Source of the DNA: a virus
Reading direction: 5' to 3' (one strand)
UHGV virus genome: UHGV-0369446
Length of the DNA stretch: 19,970 nt
Made by a program: the position numbers and the translations under genes. How positions within the stretch are numbered: position 1 is the stretch's first letter; every line of letters starts with the position of its first letter. Below are positions 7,312-19,970 of this stretch, piece by piece. A model generated the notes under the pieces. That model searched no databases. It had not been told where the DNA came from and saw only the letters and a list, made by a program, of their open reading frames with translations.

Positions 7312-7484
7312 TTCCTCGCACGATATCTTAGCCACCGGATATCCCACAGGTGGGCTGTGTAATTGAAGGTTTTTACGTCAGATTCTTTTGGGATTAGCTT
7401 GCGTTTATTTCTGGAGCGTTTCGTTGGAAGGTATTTGCAGTTTTCGCAGATTATGTCGGTGATGCTTCGTCGCTGTCGTCTCAT
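7308..7484 (-). CDS. ninE: NinE
   Basis: Trimmed to the internal Met. The sequence [58 protein letters not shown] matches lambda NinE from memory. Its ATG overlaps the stop of the upstream methyltransferase. Confidence 0.8.
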
Positions 7485-8008
7485 GCAGCCCTCCTGACGC
7501 CCTGCCCGATCGCCATCAATGCCGCTTTGGATACGGTAGTAAACATCCGTCGAGGACTGATGAACGGTCGCCAAATCAGCAGCATGGAGCCTTTGCTGTT
7601 TCCCTTCTTCTCCAGCCCTGTCGATGGTTCGATAAAATTAATCCGTCCATCAGTGATAATACGAACTTCGTCAACACTCTCCAGAGCCTTGCTGAACCAT
7701 CCGACAGACATATCCTCTGGCACAAGCATCACTACCGTCTGTCGCTGTTGTATACACTGCTCAGCGGCTTTTTCCACCCACGGCCTGATATTGCTGTACG
7801 GTGGGTTATTCCAGATTGCACCGTGGCTTACCCACTCAGAATTGAGCGCGTCGTCGTCCTCAGTTAGCCAGTGAGCGCACAGAGCATTTTTGTCGCTCGC
7901 TGCCGAATCCAGCCAGAATCCAAACTCAATATCCAGTGCATCAAAAAGCCAAAGCGGCGTTTGCCAGCAGTCCTTGTCGTGTGCTGGCGTATTTGATTTG
8001 ATAGTCAT
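7481..8008 (-). CDS. phage-type DNA N6-adenine methyltransferase (Dam-like, orphan)
   Basis: Start placed at [26 protein letters not shown] (ATGA overlap with the ninB stop). Contains the motif IWNNPPYS (the NPPY catalytic motif of N6-adenine MTases) and the WxTP start typical of small phage Dam-family enzymes. No adjacent restriction gene. Confidence 0.8.
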
Positions 8009-8445
8009 GCAGCCCGATCTCCCCATCGCGCTTTCCATTCGAGAGCCAGTCGCGCTTCGTCTGACCACTTAACGCCACGCTCTGTACCGAATGCCTGTAT
8101 AAGCTCTAATAGCTCCGCAAATTCGCTTACACGCATCCTGCTGGTTGACTGGCCTATTACCACAAAGCCATTCCCGGCAAGGTTAGGAACAACATCCTGC
8201 TGCTTTAATGCTGCGGTAAACACACACTTCCAGCTTTCTGCATCCAGCCAGCGACCATGCCATTCAACCTGACGAGAGACGTCACCTAAGCAGGCCCATA
8301 GCTTCCTGTTTTGGTCTAAGCTGCGGTTGCGTTCCTGAATGGTTACTACGATTGGTTTGGTTGGGTCTGGAAGGATTTGCTGTACTGCGTGAATAGCGTT
8401 TTGCTGATGTGCCGGAGATCGAATTTCAAAGGTTAGTTTTTTCAT
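8005..8445 (-). CDS. ninB: NinB (Orf-family recombination mediator)
   Basis: Trimmed to MKKLTFEIRSPAHQQNAIHAVQQILPDPTKPIVVTIQERNRSLDQNRKLWACLG..., which matches lambda NinB (146 aa) as I recall it. Confidence 0.9.
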   Translation of the reverse strand: MKKLTFEIRSPAHQQNAIHAVQQILPDPTKPIVVTIQERNRSLDQNRKLWACLGDVSRQVEWHGRWLDAESWKCVFTAALKQQDVVPNLAGNGFVVIGQSTSRMRVSEFAELLELIQAFGTERGVKWSDEARLALEWKARWGDRAA

Positions 8446-11089: not shown

Positions 11090-11200
11090 ATGCCCTCCAT
11101 AGTAAACACGAATAAAAAAATACAATATGTACTTTGCGAATACAAGTAAAAATACACATTGTGCATGGATGGTTCCAGTACAGAGCGTAATAATAAGGAC
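11090..11200. promoter_or_regulatory. OR region: divergent pR/pRM promoters and operators
   Basis: 111-bp AT-rich intergenic region between divergent cro and cI. It contains palindrome-like elements (TACAATATGTA, CACATTGTG) and a TACTAT hexamer upstream of cro. Exact operator boundaries are not resolved. Confidence 0.6.
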
Positions 11201-11860
11201 ATGAAAATGAAATGGTATGAACTGGCTAGATCCAGAATGAAAGAGCTCGGCATAACTCAAGAGAAGTTAGCCGAAGAGCTAGGTATGACGCAGGGTGGGA
11301 TTGGACACTGGTTGCGCGGATCTCGTCATCCATCTCTTAGTGATATTGGTGTGGTGTTTAAATACCTTGGTATTGATAACATATCATTCAACCACGACGG
11401 GACATTTTCACCTGTTGGCGAATACTCATCGGCCCCAGTTAAAAAACAATATGAGTACCCTGTTTTTTCTCATGTTCAGGCTGGGATGTTCTCTCCAGAA
11501 CTCAGAACCTTTACCAAAGGCGATGCGGAGAGATTGGTAAGCACAACCAAAAAAGCCAGTGACTCTGCATTCTGGCTTGAGGTTGAAGGTAACTCAATGA
11601 CCGCACCAACAGGTTCCAAACCCAGCTTTCCTGACGGGATGTTAATTCTGGTTGACCCTGAGCAAGCTGTTGAGCCCGGCGATTTCTGCATAGCCAGACT
11701 TGGTGGTGATGAATTTACCTTCAAGAAACTGATCAGGGATAGCGGTCAGGTGTTTCTACAGCCACTAAACCCACAATACCCAATGATCCCATGCAATGAG
11801 AGTTGTTCCGTTGTGGGGAAAGTTATCGCCAGCCAATGGCCTGAAGAGACGTTTGGGTGA
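11201..11860 (+). CDS. cI: CI repressor (heteroimmune N-terminal HTH domain, lambda-type C-terminal S24/LexA-like autocleavage domain)
   Basis: From [26 protein letters not shown] to the C-terminus (..[12 protein letters not shown]) the sequence matches the lambda CI C-terminal domain from memory. The N-terminal domain differs from lambda CI. The start is either ATG 11201 or ATG 11207 (better spaced from the AAGGA Shine-Dalgarno). The ORF-track start at 11159 is probably too far upstream. Confidence 0.9.
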
Positions 11861-11899: not shown

Positions 11900-12457
11900 T
11901 TGGCAAAAATAGATGATTATCAGCCAAGCCAAGTAGAAGTTGATAAAGTACTTTATTGTAAAAAAATAGTTAACTTTTCTGGCGTTAAATGGAAACAGAA
12001 ACCAAGTCGCTCTGATATGTGGCTACAAGCCCATATCATCCCCTTGGATGAGGATTGTATACCTATACAAGGGCTAAAGTTTGAACTGAAATGGAAACCA
12101 GATCAGGATTCAGAACCTGATGACCCGATTTCTTACCCTAAAATAAATATTATTGCTTTCTATCATAACAAGAGGGTTTTCGCGGTAGATACCTATCACT
12201 TTGACAAACACACGAATAGTTACAAGGTCGATCATCCGAAGTACCAAGATATCATTTACGGTGCTCACTACCATGTATACTATGAAGAAGCTGGATACTA
12301 TAGTGATAGAATAGCGTTTCCAATCGAAGATGACATAAACCCAGATGACCTGGTAGGGTATTGGAATTACTTCTGTAAACATCTGAACATAACTTACTCT
12401 GGGAGAATACCTTTACCGCTTGAAGATGAGTCGGGGCAAATGGGGTTTGGAATATGA
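11900..12457 (+). CDS. hypothetical protein A (185 aa) of a two-gene operon in the rexA position; function unknown
   Basis: ORF beginning 40 nt after the cI stop. The only in-frame start before codon 40 is TTG at 11900 (in-frame TAA at 11894..11896). AT-rich composition; acidic, Tyr/His-rich product (YGAHYHVYYEEAGYY); no hydrophobic segments. Its stop overlaps the start of gene B (ATGA). Confidence 0.6.
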   Translation: MAKIDDYQPSQVEVDKVLYCKKIVNFSGVKWKQKPSRSDMWLQAHIIPLDEDCIPIQGLKFELKWKPDQDSEPDDPISYPKINIIAFYHNKRVFAVDTYHFDKHTNSYKVDHPKYQDIIYGAHYHVYYEEAGYYSDRIAFPIEDDINPDDLVGYWNYFCKHLNITYSGRIPLPLEDESGQMGFGI

Positions 12458-13206
12458 TGTGCTCAACAGTGATCTCACAACTAGGTTTCGAATGCCATCC
12501 AATAGGCAAGACCTTGAGAATTATCAGTCCATTCACTTACTGTGATGATGGAGAGCATGTCGGTGCCTTTATCCGTGAAGTCAATGGTAGGTATTTAGTT
12601 AGTGACAGATGCGATGCCTTAATGAATATGGAGGCAAGAGGGATCTCGCTTACCAAAAAACGACTTGATGAGATACGACAATTACTGCTTAAAGAAGGCG
12701 CAGAACTCAATGCTCGAGGAGAAATCATTGCTTGGGCAACAGAAAAGGATGTCGGTGCGATTACATCGAACATAATTAGAGCTGGTATACTCGCATCAAC
12801 TTTGTCGTTAGACTGGTATCAGCCAGTTCAAGCTGAAAAGTTTGAAAGTATGGTTATTGATTATCTATATCACACAGAGCTTAGAGACGCACTTTCTCTT
12901 CGTGAAAACGTATATGGCTTGAGTGGACATCAAATTACCGTCCCTGTAACAATAAAAACCGACATACCTAAATACGTTTTTACATCAAGCGTGAAACACG
13001 GAGGAAGCTGGAATAGTGCTTACTCATTGCTTGGGAAACTAATTGATCTTAAAGCTTCAAGTGAGGAGTATAACAACAGATTTGTTGTTATAGACAGCGA
13101 AGCAATTGGTGATCAAATGCAACAACTCTCCTTACTCTTCCATGAATCAAGCCAAGTTCTACCATTCTCCAAAAGAGAGACTTGGGTTAAGAGACTTGCA
13201 GCATAA
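12454..13206 (+). CDS. hypothetical protein B (250 aa) of a two-gene operon in the rexB position; function unknown
   Basis: ORF starting ATGATG and overlapping the gene A stop. AT-rich. No membrane-spanning segments evident, unlike RexB. Followed directly by a strong intrinsic terminator. Confidence 0.65.
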   Translation: MMCSTVISQLGFECHPIGKTLRIISPFTYCDDGEHVGAFIREVNGRYLVSDRCDALMNMEARGISLTKKRLDEIRQLLLKEGAELNARGEIIAWATEKDVGAITSNIIRAGILASTLSLDWYQPVQAEKFESMVIDYLYHTELRDALSLRENVYGLSGHQITVPVTIKTDIPKYVFTSSVKHGGSWNSAYSLLGKLIDLKASSEEYNNRFVVIDSEAIGDQMQQLSLLFHESSQVLPFSKRETWVKRLAA

Positions 13207-13546: not shown

Positions 13547-13642
13547 TCACCCAACCACATAAGCTGTGGGATGCAATGCCGAAGCAACCGTCTCAGGAGG
13601 AGCTTCGAGATTGCATCGCCAAAGTTTATTCGGGAGGAATCC

Positions 13643-13915
13643 ATGTCCAGAAAAACAGAATTTAAAGGCACCGCAGCTTCTCGCCGTAGAGCTCGTCGCG
13701 CAAATCTGCAAAGTCAGGAGGCGATCAGCTCCGACAAGCTACACAGGCCAACCCCTTCACGAGTGGTCTTGCAATGCAAGCTCAAACCAGCAATGAGAGC
13801 AGAAGTGATAACTCTGACAACGTTGACCAGAAAATATGAAGGTTCAACTTGTCTTCCGAACGTAGCTCTTTACGCGGCAGGCTACCGGAAATCAAAACAA
13901 CTGACGGCGAGATGA
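13643..13915 (+). CDS. N: N-family antitermination protein
   Basis: Start placed at the ATG preceded by GGGAGG (MSRKTEFKGTAASRRRARRANLQSQ...). It has an N-terminal arginine-rich motif like N proteins and is the first gene after pL/nutL. The sequence differs from lambda N and resembles non-lambda N variants (phage 21 / P22 gp24 type) as far as I recall. Confidence 0.7.
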   Translation: MSRKTEFKGTAASRRRARRANLQSQEAISSDKLHRPTPSRVVLQCKLKPAMRAEVITLTTLTRKYEGSTCLPNVALYAAGYRKSKQLTAR

Positions 13916-13931
13916 TAAATTCATTTGCTAA

Positions 13932-14513
13932 TTACTTGTTTTTGCCATGCTTATCCTGAGCGATAAGTTCATCCATAAGGCTGTCTGCCTTCCCGGCAAA
14001 CCTAATGTAGCACTCATGTCTATAGCTTTCAGGGATAACGAAACGGTCGGTATCAGGATATCCAACAGCAGGAGGCCTTCGAACGAGGAGTCCTTTTTTG
14101 AGCAATGAAATTGATTCATGAGCGCCCTTTTCCGTTTGTAGCTGGTTATTAGCGGCTACAGCGAATGCCAAATACGCTCTTTCTCCAAGAGTTAACGAAT
14201 CAAACAAATCTTGCACATATTTTTCTTCTTTAGATTTGCGCTTCTGAGCAGCGAATACCTCAATTCTTTCAGTCACAGCGTGATAAGCGGAATTAACAAC
14301 GCCGTTAAGCACATAGCTAACGCAAAACAACAGGATGTAATACATCCAGTAATGAGGAAGGATTTCTGGATTATGCAGGTTTATCCATTCTTTTACGCTT
14401 ACCGGCATAACAATAATCAATATGATCAGGATGATTAGCATATGAATCAACTGTTTAAGTGTCATTCCTTGCAGGAAAAAATGCATTAGTTCCTGCCACC
14501 ATGAGTTGTTCAT
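13932..14513 (-). CDS. sieB: superinfection exclusion protein SieB
   Basis: 193-aa ORF with an N-terminal hydrophobic membrane segment (LIHMLIILIILIIVMPV). It lies on the opposite strand between N and ral, as lambda/P22 sieB does. Similarity to SieB is from memory. Confidence 0.7.
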   Translation of the reverse strand: MNNSWWQELMHFFLQGMTLKQLIHMLIILIILIIVMPVSVKEWINLHNPEILPHYWMYYILLFCVSYVLNGVVNSAYHAVTERIEVFAAQKRKSKEEKYVQDLFDSLTLGERAYLAFAVAANNQLQTEKGAHESISLLKKGLLVRRPPAVGYPDTDRFVIPESYRHECYIRFAGKADSLMDELIAQDKHGKNK

Positions 14514-16204: not shown

Positions 16205-16990
16205 ATGAGTACAGCACTCGCAACGCTGGCAGGGAAGCTGGCTGAACGTGTCGGCATGGATTCTGTCGACCCACAGGAACTGATCACCACTCTTCGCCAG
16301 ACGGCATTTAAAGGTGATGCCAGCGATGCGCAGTTCATCGCATTGTTGATCGTCGCCAACCAGTACGGCCTTAATCCGTGGACGAAAGAAATTTACGCCT
16401 TCCCTGATAAGCAGAACGGCATTGTTCCGGTGGTGGGCGTTGATGGCTGGTCCCGCATCATCAATGAAAACCAGCAGTTTGATGGTATGGACTTTGAGCA
16501 GGACAATGAATCATGTACATGCCGGATTTACCGCAAAGACCGCAATCATCCGATCTGCGTTACCGAGTGGATGGATGAATGCCGCCGCGAACCATTCAAA
16601 ACCCGCGAAGGCAGAGAAATCACGGGGCCGTGGCAGTCGCATCCCAAACGGATGTTACGGCATAAAGCCATGATTCAGTGTGCCCGTCTGGCCTTCGGAT
16701 TTGCTGGTATCTATGACAAGGATGAAGCCGAGCGCATTGTCGAAAATACCGCATACACTGCAGAACGTCAGCCGGAACGCGACATCACTCCGGTTAACGA
16801 TGAAACCATGCAGGAGATTAACACTCTGCTGATTGCCCTGGACAAAACATGGGATGACGACTTATTGCCGCTCTGTTCCCAGATATTTCGCCGCGACATT
16901 CGCGCATCGTCAGAACTGACACAGGCCGAAGCAGTGAAAGCTCTTGGATTCCTGAAACAGAAAGCCACTGAGCAGAAGGTGGCAGCATGA
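16205..16990 (+). CDS. bet: Bet (Red-beta single-strand annealing protein)
   Basis: 261-aa [62 protein letters not shown]..., matching lambda Bet from memory. Confidence 0.95.
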
Positions 16991-17667
16991 CACCGGACAT
17001 TATCCTGCAGCGTACCGGGATCGACGTGAGAGCTGTCGAACAGGGGGATGATGCATGGCACAAATTACGGCTCGGCGTCATCACCGCTTCAGAAGTTCAC
17101 AACGTGATAGCAAAGCCCCGCTCAGGAAAGAAGTGGCCTGACATGAAAATGTCCTACTTCCACACCCTGCTGGCTGAGGTTTGCACCGGTGTGGCTCCGG
17201 AAGTTAATGCTAAGGCGCTGGCGTGGGGAAAACAGTACGAGAACGACGCCAGAACCCTGTTTGAATTCACTTCCGGCGTGAATGTTACTGAATCCCCGAT
17301 CATCTATCGCGACGAAAGTATGCGCACCGCCTGCTCTCCCGATGGTTTATGCAGTGACGGCAATGGCCTTGAGCTGAAATGCCCGTTTACCTCCCGGGAT
17401 TTCATGAAGTTCCGGCTCGGTGGTTTCGAGGCCATAAAGTCGGCTTACATGGCCCAGGTGCAGTACAGCATGTGGGTGACACGAAAAGATGCCTGGTACT
17501 TTGCCAACTATGACCCACGAATGAAGCGTGAAGGCCTGCATTATGTCGTGGTTGAGCGGGATGAAAAGTACATGGCGAGTTTTGACGAGATGGTGCCGGA
17601 GTTCATCGAAAAAATGGACGAAGCACTGGCTGAAATTGGTTTTGTATTTGGAGAGCAATGGCGATGA
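16987..17667 (+). CDS. exo: Exo (Red-alpha 5'-3' exonuclease)
   Basis: 226-aa [68 protein letters not shown]..., matching lambda Exo from memory. 4-nt overlap with the bet stop. Confidence 0.95.
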
Positions 17668-17846
17668 CCCATCCTCACGATAATATCCGGGTAGGCGCGA
17701 TCACTTTCGTCTACTCCGTTACAAAGCGAGGCTGGGTATTTCACGGTCTTTCTGTTATCCGAAATCCGCTGAAAGCCCAGCGGCTGGCTGAGGAGATAAA
17801 TAATAAACGGGGGGCGGTATGCACAAAGCATCTCCTGTTGAGTTAA
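17664..17846 (+). CDS. small hypothetical protein (about 60 aa), lambda orf60a-like position
   Basis: ORF whose ATG overlaps the exo stop (ATGA). An alternative start is 17658. No motif recognised. Confidence 0.45.
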
Positions 17847-18010
17847 GAACGAGTATTGATTTGGCACATAGCCTTGCTCAAATTGGAGTCAGGTTTGTGC
17901 CAATACCAGCAGAAACAGACGAAGAATTTCATACGTTAGCCACATCCCTTTCACAAAAGCTGGAAATGATGGTGGCGAAAGCAGAAGCAGATGAGAGAGA
18001 CCAGGTATGA
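17819..18010 (+). CDS. small hypothetical protein (63 aa), lambda orf63-like position
   Basis: 63-aa ORF overlapping the 3' end of the previous small ORF. Same length and position as lambda orf63. Confidence 0.45.
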   Translation: MHKASPVELRTSIDLAHSLAQIGVRFVPIPAETDEEFHTLATSLSQKLEMMVAKAEADERDQV

Positions 18011-18318
18011 CAACCACTGAATGCATTTTTCTGGCAGCGGGCTTCATATTCTGTGTGCTTATGCTTGCCGACATGGGGCTTGTTCAGTGACACCTCAGCA
18101 AGAAAACGCCCTTCGCAGCATTGCCCGTCAGGCTAATTCTGAAATCAAAAAAGTCAGACAGCAGTTTCCAAAAACGTCAATGACATTTGCCGTAGCGTAC
18201 TGAAGAAGCACCGCGAAACGGTAACGCTGAAGGGATTCACACCGACTCATTTAAGCCTGGCAATCGGCATGTTAAACGGCGTCTTTAAGGAACGATGAAC
18301 ATGAAAAGCAAAATTATC

Positions 18319-18343
18319 AGGGAGCTACAGGCTCCTTTTTTAT
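18319..18343 (+). terminator. intrinsic terminator
   Basis: GGAGC-TACAG-GCTCC hairpin followed by TTTTTTATT. Confidence 0.6.
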
Positions 18344-18396
18344 TGTTCGCATTCACCCTCAAGCGTATTAACCAACAGTTCAGGGATTAATGAAAG

Positions 18397-18618
18397 ATGG
18401 CAGACATCATTGATTCAGCATCAGAAATAGAAGAATTACAGCGCAACACAGCAATAAAAATGCGCCGCCTGAACTACCTGGCTGTATCTGCCACTCATTG
18501 TTGTGAGTGTGGCGATCCGATAGATGAACGAAGACGCCTGGCCGTTCAGGGTTGTCGGACTTGCGCCAGTTGCCAGCAAGATCTGGAGCTTATCCGCAAA
18601 CAAAGGGGGATTAAGTGA
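18397..18618 (+). CDS. TraR/DksA-family C4 zinc-finger protein
   Basis: 73-aa ORF with the CxxC-(17)-CxxC arrangement (CCECGDPIDERRRLAVQGCRTCASC) typical of TraR/DksA-like proteins. Lambda carries a comparable orf73 in this region. Confidence 0.8.
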   Translation: MADIIDSASEIEELQRNTAIKMRRLNYLAVSATHCCECGDPIDERRRLAVQGCRTCASCQQDLELIRKQRGIK

Positions 18619-18902
18619 TGGCTAACCTGCAACTTGCTGTTAAAAGTGAATACTTCGATGCCATGATTCGCGGAGAGAAAACGGAAGAGTATCGCTTGTG
18701 TAATGACTACTGGAATAAGCGAATTATGTTCCGCGAGTATGACCGCCTGATTATCACAAAGGGATATCCGAAGCGCGACGATTCCAGCCGCAGAATTGAC
18801 GTCCCGTATGAAGGGTATGAAATCAAGACAATCACACATCCGCACTTCGGCGATAAACCGGTAAAGGTTTACGCGATAAAGGTAAATATCGGCAATAAAT
18901 AA
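18615..18902 (+). CDS. ASCH-like domain protein (95 aa)
   Basis: The N-terminal pattern LAVKSEYFDAMIRGEKTEEYRL resembles the ASCH / PUA-like fold signature (KxxYxxxIxxGxKTxExR). 4-nt overlap with the upstream gene. Assignment is from pattern memory only. Confidence 0.45.
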   Translation: MMANLQLAVKSEYFDAMIRGEKTEEYRLCNDYWNKRIMFREYDRLIITKGYPKRDDSSRRIDVPYEGYEIKTITHPHFGDKPVKVYAIKVNIGNK

Positions 18903-18906
18903 CAAT

Positions 18907-18932
18907 CCTCGCACTCGCGGGGATTTCTTTTA
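18907..18932 (+). terminator. putative intrinsic terminator after the ASCH-like gene
   Basis: CCTCGC-ACTC-GCGGGG hairpin (one G-U pair) followed by ATTTCTTTTAT. Confidence 0.4.
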
Positions 18933-18944
18933 TATGGGGATAAT

Positions 18945-19745
18945 ATGACCATCCACTTTCACGGCAGCCCAATATGGGGGGATGAGCATGCCCCTACAGA
19001 TATGCTGATTAAAGCCCTTTACCGTGATGGTGGGGCTTTTGTTTCATTTGCCAGACCAGAGCAGATGAAAAAGATTGCCATGTTCCCTTGTGATATACGC
19101 CTTGATAACGGCGCTTTTAGCGACTGGATGAAAGCATTAAAGAAAGGCACTCCGGTAGACTGGAGTAAGAGACGAGCAAAATTCTACGACTTTGTTGGGA
19201 AGTGGTTCAGCAGAATTGAATGGTTTCTTATACCTGACGTTATCGAAGGGACAGAGGCAGAAAACGACGAGCAGATTGAGTGTGTTCCTGATTGGCTAAA
19301 ATCAAAAGCGGTTCCTGTCTGGCATACCGACGAATCAATTGAACGTCTTTTACGCCTTTCTGGCAAATTTGAATGGGTGGCGATTGGATGCTGCGGCCCA
19401 CACAGGCACATACGCTCTAAATGGTGGGAACAGAGAATGGATGAAGTTTTCACTGAACTTTATATCAATCGTAATTTGAAAGTGAAAATTCATGGTCTTC
19501 GAATGCTCGACGTGAGAGTTCTTGGTATGTATCCGTTCGCCAGTGCGGATTCTACTAATGTTGCTGTTAACGTACCGAAGACAGAGAAGCGATTTCCTGA
19601 GATTACCGACAAACTGGCACGTACAGCTGTACTTCGCGCTGCTATTGAAAAGGTGCACCCGCCATCGATATCAGCATGGGTAGACAGAAAGATGAGAGAG
19701 CCGGCGCAAGCCGGTTTTTTATTTGAATTCACCGACGCCGCTTAA
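18945..19745 (+). CDS. hypothetical protein (266 aa), uncharacterised accessory gene
   Basis: Long ORF with a start 13 nt after the preceding terminator. Contains a Cys/His cluster (AIGCCGPHRH). Followed by terminator-like hairpins. No confident family assignment. Confidence 0.6.
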   Translation: MTIHFHGSPIWGDEHAPTDMLIKALYRDGGAFVSFARPEQMKKIAMFPCDIRLDNGAFSDWMKALKKGTPVDWSKRRAKFYDFVGKWFSRIEWFLIPDVIEGTEAENDEQIECVPDWLKSKAVPVWHTDESIERLLRLSGKFEWVAIGCCGPHRHIRSKWWEQRMDEVFTELYINRNLKVKIHGLRMLDVRVLGMYPFASADSTNVAVNVPKTEKRFPEITDKLARTAVLRAAIEKVHPPSISAWVDRKMREPAQAGFLFEFTDAA

Positions 19746-19764
19746 TGCGGATTTCTTTTATCTG

Positions 19765-19790
19765 AACTCGCTACGGCGAGTTTTGTTTTA
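19765..19790 (+). terminator. putative intrinsic terminator after the 266-aa gene
   Basis: AACTCGC-TACG-GCGAGTT 7-bp stem followed by TTGTTTTA. A smaller CCGC-TTAAT-GCGG hairpin with ATTTCTTTTAT lies just upstream at about 19736..19760. Confidence 0.45.
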
Positions 19791-19802
19791 TGGAGATGAT
19801 AA

Positions 19803-19970
19803 ATGCACTTCCAAGTCACAGGTGAATGGAATGGAGAGCCATTCAACAGGGTTATCGAAGCAGAGAACATCAACGACTGCTATAACCACTGGATGATATG
19901 GGCGCAGATAGCGCATGCAGACGTAACCAATATTCGAATTGAAGAACTGAAAGAACACCAATCCGCCTGA
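19803..19970 (+). CDS. small hypothetical protein (55 aa)
   Basis: Manual translation gives MHFQVTGEWNGEPFNRVIEAENINDCYNHWMIWAQIAHADVTNIRIEELKEHQSA, ending at the last base of the window. Below the ORF-track cutoff. Confidence 0.4.
   Translation: MHFQVTGEWNGEPFNRVIEAENINDCYNHWMIWAQIAHADVTNIRIEELKEHQSA

Follow-up and report, generated by a model that had tools for sequence, protein, structure and literature searches.

The + strand of the window, i.e. the whole 19,970-nucleotide stretch of UHGV-0369446 that was analysed, has the direction of the lambda pL operon. A cI-like repressor gene (11159-11860, +) and the gene of an N-like antiterminator (13571-13915, +) are followed on this strand by kil, then gam, bet (16205-16990, +), exo (16987-17667, +), small ORFs, and a gene coding for a 73-aa DksA/TraR-type C4 zinc-finger protein (18397..18618, +; PF01258, E 6.7e-9; phrog_54). 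The latter is a context gene that lambda also has. Further downstream, lambdap35-like orf55 (19803..19970, +; 55 aa; phrog_676, E 3e-38) is the gene found immediately 5' of xis in lambda and HK106. Between the zinc-finger gene and orf55 lie an ASCH-like gene with a PUA-like fold (18615..18902, +; 95 aa) and a singleton DpdA-like gene (18945..19745, +; 266 aa), ortholog of HK106 gene 29. The counterpart interval of lambda holds ea22 and ea8.5; the first-pass annotation had rightly placed both ORFs there as their replacement. Two genes of unknown function occupy the position of rexAB, directly 3' of the cI-like repressor gene (11900-13206, +; phrog_2017 and phrog_1960), and match weakly the PADLOC candidate defence system PDC-M24A/B (E 4.8e-4 and 4.7e-10). 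A SieB-like superinfection-exclusion gene (13932-14513, -; phrog_1301, E 3e-122) is found just after the N-like gene on the opposite strand.

The 95-aa ORF more likely starts at the ATG at position 18618, overlapping the upstream TGA. Its product, first noted as ASCH-like, shows the ASCH/PUA-like beta-barrel fold, but it stays below the Pfam gathering threshold for ASCH (PF04266, 14.4 bits versus a cutoff of 21.2, residues 7-29 only). Its place beside the DpdA cassette is not conserved: of nine near-identical cassettes, three have an intact ASCH gene (the window, L012 and L016). Only its last 18 codons persist in L010 and L011 (4902-4955) and its first ~20 codons in L014 (4875-4958), these remnants lying directly 5' of the terminator-like hairpin 1 described below, next to an intact DpdA cassette. 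The ASCH gene has been eroded by deletion in sister prophages. HK106, L013 and L015 carry a 29-aa Cys-rich ORF in its place. The ASCH gene is also widespread in the absence of DpdA. A functional ASCH-DpdA operon is discarded, and the linked role that the first-pass annotation thought conceivable is not supported.

Hairpin 1 (18904..18925, +; 9 pairs, centroid -13.1 kcal/mol, z -3.6) corresponds to the element found 3' of ea8.5 in lambda and is convincing as a good terminator-like element. Its T-rich tail contains the left copy (18921..18933, +) of a 13-bp direct repeat, GGATTTCTTTTAT, whose right copy is at 19749..19761 (+). The sequence tail previously noted as shared by the two genes is therefore an exact 13-mer present twice, displaced by 1-4 nt from the coordinates first given. 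The window has no third exact copy; allowing up to two mismatches there are five matches versus 0.61 expected, a number reached in none of 200 shuffles. The two exact copies are not due to chance. An alignment of the junctions of the window, lambda, HK106 and eight near-identical cassettes from viral contigs clarifies their arrangement. The lambda DNA from ea8.5 to orf55 is a single block composed of hairpin 1, GGATTTATTTTAT, CTGAAC, hairpin 2 and TTTTGTTTTATGGAGATGATAAATG. Hairpin 2 of the window (19764..19783, +), followed by TTGTTTTAT, is the lambda element 5' of orf55. In the window, HK106 and L010-L016 the 266-aa gene lies right after the 13-mer, which is found again at the 3' end of the gene, the right copy of HK106 having one mismatch (GGGTTTCTTTTAT). 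Since the gene sits exactly between the two copies, the shared tail is a 13-bp direct repeat around an insert of ~815 bp. By this alignment the 266-aa gene is an inserted cassette of ~0.8 kb that parts two terminator-like hairpins standing in tandem between ea8.5 and orf55 in lambda. The two GGATTTCTTTTAT tails are not independent terminators, because the comparison to lambda reveals a single ancestral site that the insert has split. This arrangement is most simply read as the outcome of recombination, illegitimate or by short homology, in which two T-rich terminator tails took part.

The left edge of this region has a mosaic history of its own. A conserved block, AATAACAATCC, is found just 5' of hairpin 1, and the TAA inside it serves as stop codon of at least three unrelated upstream genes across phages, a sharing also seen at about 6003 in L001 and about 2850 in L008. 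In many E. coli prophages the homology to the window extends to position 18908 and is lost beyond it, with breakpoints at 18898-18908. This junction is a typical lambdoid mosaic joint, and the block looks like a reusable recombination linker at the gene edge.

A scan for terminators gives 6 sites versus 2.0 +/- 1.5 expected. The first-pass annotation had described a hairpin after each gene. This holds for hairpin 1, but the stem preceding the second tail is weak, with only 4 bp closing a loop that contains the stop codon (19738..19750, +). It is the remnant of the 266-aa gene's own terminator. L018-L021, relatives of 64-83% identity, have this terminator intact and strong at the end of the gene, the loop again containing the stop codon (GCCGCTTAAGGGCGGCTTCTTTTTT in L018); in the window it is weakened to GCCGCTTAATGCGG, then ATTTCTTTTAT. 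Two stronger hairpins that had escaped the first reading flank this weak stem. One is hairpin 2 and the other is a terminator-like hairpin followed by T6 within the last 50 nt of the DpdA coding sequence (19695..19720, +). The latter codes for EPAQAGF in the disordered carboxyl-terminal tail of the protein (residues 256-266 have pLDDT <50 in the predicted model). Its stem is retained in the 76-85% relatives L017 and L004, with synonymous changes in the loop. The structure may be an attenuator or merely tolerated; in a more speculative view, this conserved hairpin might adjust how much transcription reads through. The same hairpin is also retained in the middle of the ORF of a DpdA-Dam fusion. 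A crude consensus scan finds no sigma-70-like promoter in 17600-19970 versus 3.8 expected. The terminator-like hairpins are present, but an autonomous moron, with its own promoter and its own terminator, is not found; the first-pass annotation had proposed a moron-like layout of gene plus terminator.

The 266-aa protein shares 98.5% amino acid identity with HK106 gp29 (YP_007151699), named 'queuine tRNA-ribosyltransferase' in RefSeq, and matches PHROG 887 (3e-102). HK106 has the same cassette, with the same flanking hairpins and position upstream of orf55-xis-int, whereas its recombination module is Erf/Abc2 and that of the window Bet/Exo. Hutinet et al. (2019; PMC6884629, Supplementary Data 1) list the phage as DpdA-only, and gp29 is one of the 'singleton DpdA' proteins in their cluster of gamma-proteobacterial phages. 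A full-text literature search pairing DpdA with HK106 returned nothing, the link being present in that supplementary table only, and no 2024-2026 paper on singleton DpdAs was found in the collection searched.

A family profile of 50 sequences (A1) aligns by hhalign to the genetically validated DpdA of phage CAjan over 193 columns (95.4% probability, E 1.9e-8), pairing LDNGAFS with LDSGAFS, AIGCCG with TIGGMV, KIHGLR with KLHAFG and SADSTN with SCDSSS. Intermediates 36-41% identical to the window protein match CAjan DpdA directly in BLASTP (down to 1.6e-12). The protein has the (beta/alpha)8 barrel of TGT/DpdA type. An exhaustive profile search extends the family to 1813 clusters (50% identity) at E <= 1e-3, mostly of 240-280 aa; a pattern scan of genome contigs, with strict patterns, gives 13 loci only. 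Scans with Pfam, NCBIfam and PADLOC give no match for the 266-aa protein, nor do PDB sequences (phmmer, profile hmmsearch) or the TGT profile PF01702, and hhalign versus E. coli Tgt yields 0.4% probability. CAjan DpdA likewise has no Pfam match, so that these profile negatives are uninformative and do not argue against DpdA membership. We consider it highly likely that the 266-aa protein is a member of the phage DpdA family, within the TGT superfamily. The TGT/DpdA-like guess of the first-pass annotation was correct, given the homology to the validated CAjan enzyme and the near-identity to catalogued HK106 gp29. The assignment being already catalogued, the prediction is not new, and the chemistry of the protein is predicted.

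The candidate catalytic residues are D54, D98, H127, H183 and D202. The two motifs first noticed are indeed present, IRLDNGAFS at residues 51-59 and VAIGCCGPH at residues 145-153, and the catalytic Asp residues to be looked for in an alignment have their candidates in D54 and D202. No variation is seen at D54, H127, G148, H183, D202 and S203, with CAjan also in the comparison. In LDNGAFS, D54 (invariant in A1 and A4) is followed four residues on by the aromatic F58, an arrangement comparable to the Asp and gate D95/F99 of bacterial DpdA. D202-S203 of SADST, aligned to CDSS of CAjan, compares to the bacterial nucleophile D256. Mutagenesis of bacterial DpdA assigned roles of general acid/base, gate and nucleophile to D95, F99 and D256, roles for which D54, F58 and D202 would be suited to judge from the alignment. 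Counterparts of the base-recognition Asp (D130) and His (H181) of bacterial DpdA are tentative: D98 is invariant within the clade and opposite a Ser in CAjan; H127 and H183 are invariant. The zinc site to be expected in a TGT is absent. There is no CXCX2CX22H and no CxCxxC, and none of the four cysteines (C49, C113, C149, C150) is conserved; CAjan DpdA also has no CXCX2CX22H motif. The Ins8 subdomain is absent too, the protein stopping about 60 residues past beta8. The first-pass interpretation is thus partly supported, its DpdA guess surviving while the zinc site, the ASCH partnership and the autonomous moron do not. With a dN/dS ratio of 0.14 versus HK106 and 0.04 versus L018, strong purifying selection acts on the gene. 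It is carried by 82 of 5426 complete E. coli genomes, with an intact ORF in 79 of these 82.

The gene context of relatives is informative on function. A gene of the Vut_1/YhhQ family is adjacent to or overlaps the DpdA-like gene in 23 of 84 viral or metagenomic homolog loci; YhhQ is the protein that transports preQ0 in E. coli (cited in PMC6884629). All relatives of 57-85% identity have the two genes translationally coupled, and the transporter gene lies on the opposite side in more distant ones. In-frame fusions join the DpdA-like protein to a Dam-type methyltransferase (PF05869) in a metagenomic prophage (P0006, L004-L007), Pantoea ananatis and Erwinia rhapontici, and to a D12-class methyltransferase (PF02086) in Rosenbergiella; Pantoea dispersa has an unfused dam gene directly after the DpdA-like gene. 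These fusion or adjacency loci are at 6001-7383 in L004-L007, 2986-4704 in L091, 3001-4719 in L092, 2953-4686 in L093 and 3920-5095 in L090. No mention of DpdA-methyltransferase fusions was found in the DpdA literature examined. QueD adjoins the DpdA homolog of Caulobacter phage DMCA. In the 335-aa P0316 a QueD/PTPS domain (residues 7-134) is joined to a DpdA-like domain devoid of its first strand; this could be a real fusion or an artefact of gene calling or assembly, and is supportive only. Two other candidates, P0255 with a Phage_GPD domain and P0245 with a truncated D12 methyltransferase joined to an amino-terminally truncated DpdA, seem to be chimeric or to have arisen by deletion and were discounted. 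Together, the Vut_1, methyltransferase and QueD associations point to a 7-deazaguanine substrate and a DNA target. The window itself codes for a Dam-type N6-adenine methyltransferase (7481-8068, -; PF05869, E 5.5e-65) that is 49% identical to the Dam domain of P0006. The Dam and DpdA-like halves are separate genes in this phage, about 11 kb apart.

The characterized enzymes of the superfamily differ from the window protein to various extents. CAjan/9g DpdA (DpdA1) is homologous and shares the catalytic motifs, at an identity of about 14-24% only; both sides are alike in having no zinc motif or Pfam TGT match. The CAjan/9g genomes carry FolE, QueD, QueE, QueC and a preQ0 transporter beside dpdA, and their DNA has dPreQ0 and dG+ at about 25-30% of G. 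In the window no preQ0 synthesis or transport gene is seen beside the 266-aa gene, and tblastn with Vut_1, CAjan preQ0 transporter, QueD and FolE references reveals no such gene. Phage 9g dpdA alone is sufficient in E. coli to introduce host preQ0 into plasmid DNA, and VH7D DpdA2 inserts preQ1. The bacterial DpdA of Salmonella Montevideo (PDB 7UI4), which belongs to the Dpd restriction-modification system, is a 413-aa protein with four insertions and a CXCX2CX22H zinc site that needs the DpdB ATPase, whereas the 266-aa window protein has no zinc site, no large insertion and no PADLOC DpdA match. Closest among phages with analysed DNA is the lytic 90-kb Salmonella phage 7-11, the only close relative of this kind. 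Its DpdA (YP_004782407), annotated shorter at the amino terminus, is 58% identical and likewise a singleton found without preQ0 genes. The DNA of 7-11 has trace dADG (50 per 10^6 nt, 0.02% of G) and that of phage Orion has none (PMC6884629). No group of phage DpdAs is larger than the singletons (76 of 182 viruses; Hutinet 2019, PMC6884629), and the singletons of gamma-proteobacterial phages form their own similarity cluster, flagged as possibly functionally diverged (PMC6884629).

The present data establish the homology and fold of the protein, its conserved residues, the purifying selection on its gene, the structure of the cassette and the gene context of relatives; its substrate, DNA target, expression timing and protective role are inferred. 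We favour, as reasonably probable, that the protein is a stand-alone phage DpdA that exchanges G for a host-made 7-deazaguanine in phage DNA, is read from pL and provides an anti-restriction mark. Such an enzyme would belong to the tRNA-guanine-transglycosylase superfamily as a minimal TIM barrel with no zinc, and would exchange bases in double-stranded phage DNA. In a reaction with D54 of LDNGAFS as general acid/base and D202 of SADST as nucleophile, guanine would be excised and replaced by a base from the host queuosine pathway, most likely preQ0 and possibly preQ1. Because no promoter of its own was found, the gene is probably read from pL with N antitermination in lytic growth. The modification would mark progeny DNA against restriction. 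We hold this functional statement less firmly than family membership, since 7-11, with only trace dADG, is the sole member of the clade assayed and singleton clusters are possibly diverged.

This divergence underlies the alternative to which we give most weight, though we judge it unlikely: a true DpdA-family protein of diverged or very sparse activity, leaving bulk DNA essentially unmodified and having a role other than general anti-restriction. Such an enzyme might act at rare motifs only, insert another 7-deazaguanine derivative (dADG-type as in 7-11) or behave like a DNA glycosylase. The 7-11 and Orion measurements and the separate cluster, for which the authors of that study considered functional divergence, speak in its favour. 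So does the Gly-rich loop, with GCCGPH here and GSSGE in relatives; in TGT and bacterial DpdA it is this loop that selects the 7-substituent. The invariant catalytic Asp pair with its surrounding motifs and the strong purifying selection argue against it, and the transporter, QueD and DNA-methyltransferase associations lead back to a genuine 7-deazaguanine/DNA function. More doubtful is the proposal that the singleton clade is half of a two-mark anti-restriction module, in which a DpdA with no zinc would place 7-deazaguanine, imported or derived from the host, at sparse specific sites and work alongside a Dam-type adenine methyltransferase, or alternatively that it moved to a new substrate or chemistry. 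The two-mark version is suggested by the fusions to two unrelated methyltransferase families in relatives and by the separate dam gene at 7481-8068, and the other version would account for the near-absence of bulk 7-deazaguanine in 7-11.

That the protein is a tRNA-guanine transglycosylase altering wobble modification of host or phage tRNA during infection, as its RefSeq and PHROG names imply, is improbable. There is no detectable profile similarity to Tgt/ArcTGT, be it with PF01702 or in the hhalign comparison to E. coli Tgt, and the window protein has neither the CXCX2CX22H zinc site, with its four cysteines not conserved, nor the Ins8/carboxyl-terminal subdomain and tRNA-binding parts. Its nearest validated relatives act on DNA, and fusion to DNA adenine methyltransferases is recurrent. 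We give very little credit to a TGT-like enzyme with a non-nucleic-acid substrate, either modifying proteins like Cap10 of type IV CBASS or sequestering preQ0: no QueC-like Cap9 or CD-NTase partner is present among the surrounding genes examined, the sequence link is to phage DpdA rather than Cap10, and relatives are fused to DNA methyltransferases. A decaying passenger gene with no function, compatible with the lost Vut_1 partner, the terminator stem reduced to 4 bp and the eroded ASCH neighbour in sister prophages, is hardly tenable for an ORF intact in nearly all E. coli carriers, with a dN/dS of 0.04-0.14 and all catalytic motifs intact.

Singleton DpdAs are the least understood group of phage DpdAs, the key question being whether they modify DNA from the host preQ0 pool. 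The discovery is incremental because the gene was already catalogued; the present analysis adds the anatomy of the cassette and its duplication, the native terminator remnant, the hairpin inside the coding sequence, and the recurrent Vut_1 coupling and DNA-methyltransferase fusions of relatives. If the stand-alone DpdA activity that we favour is true, DNA hypermodification would be added to temperate coliphages, with a bearing on restriction evasion and horizontal transfer. Because the cassette occurs in classic lambdoid phages and prophages amenable to genetics (HK106, E. coli W), whether singletons draw on host preQ0 is readily testable in mutants of the E. coli queuosine pathway. A DpdA cassette of 99% identity is also found in H105 (NZ_CM135829.1), labelled E. 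coli DH5alpha; it is surprising in a laboratory strain of K-12 and suggests a lysogenised or mislabelled isolate.
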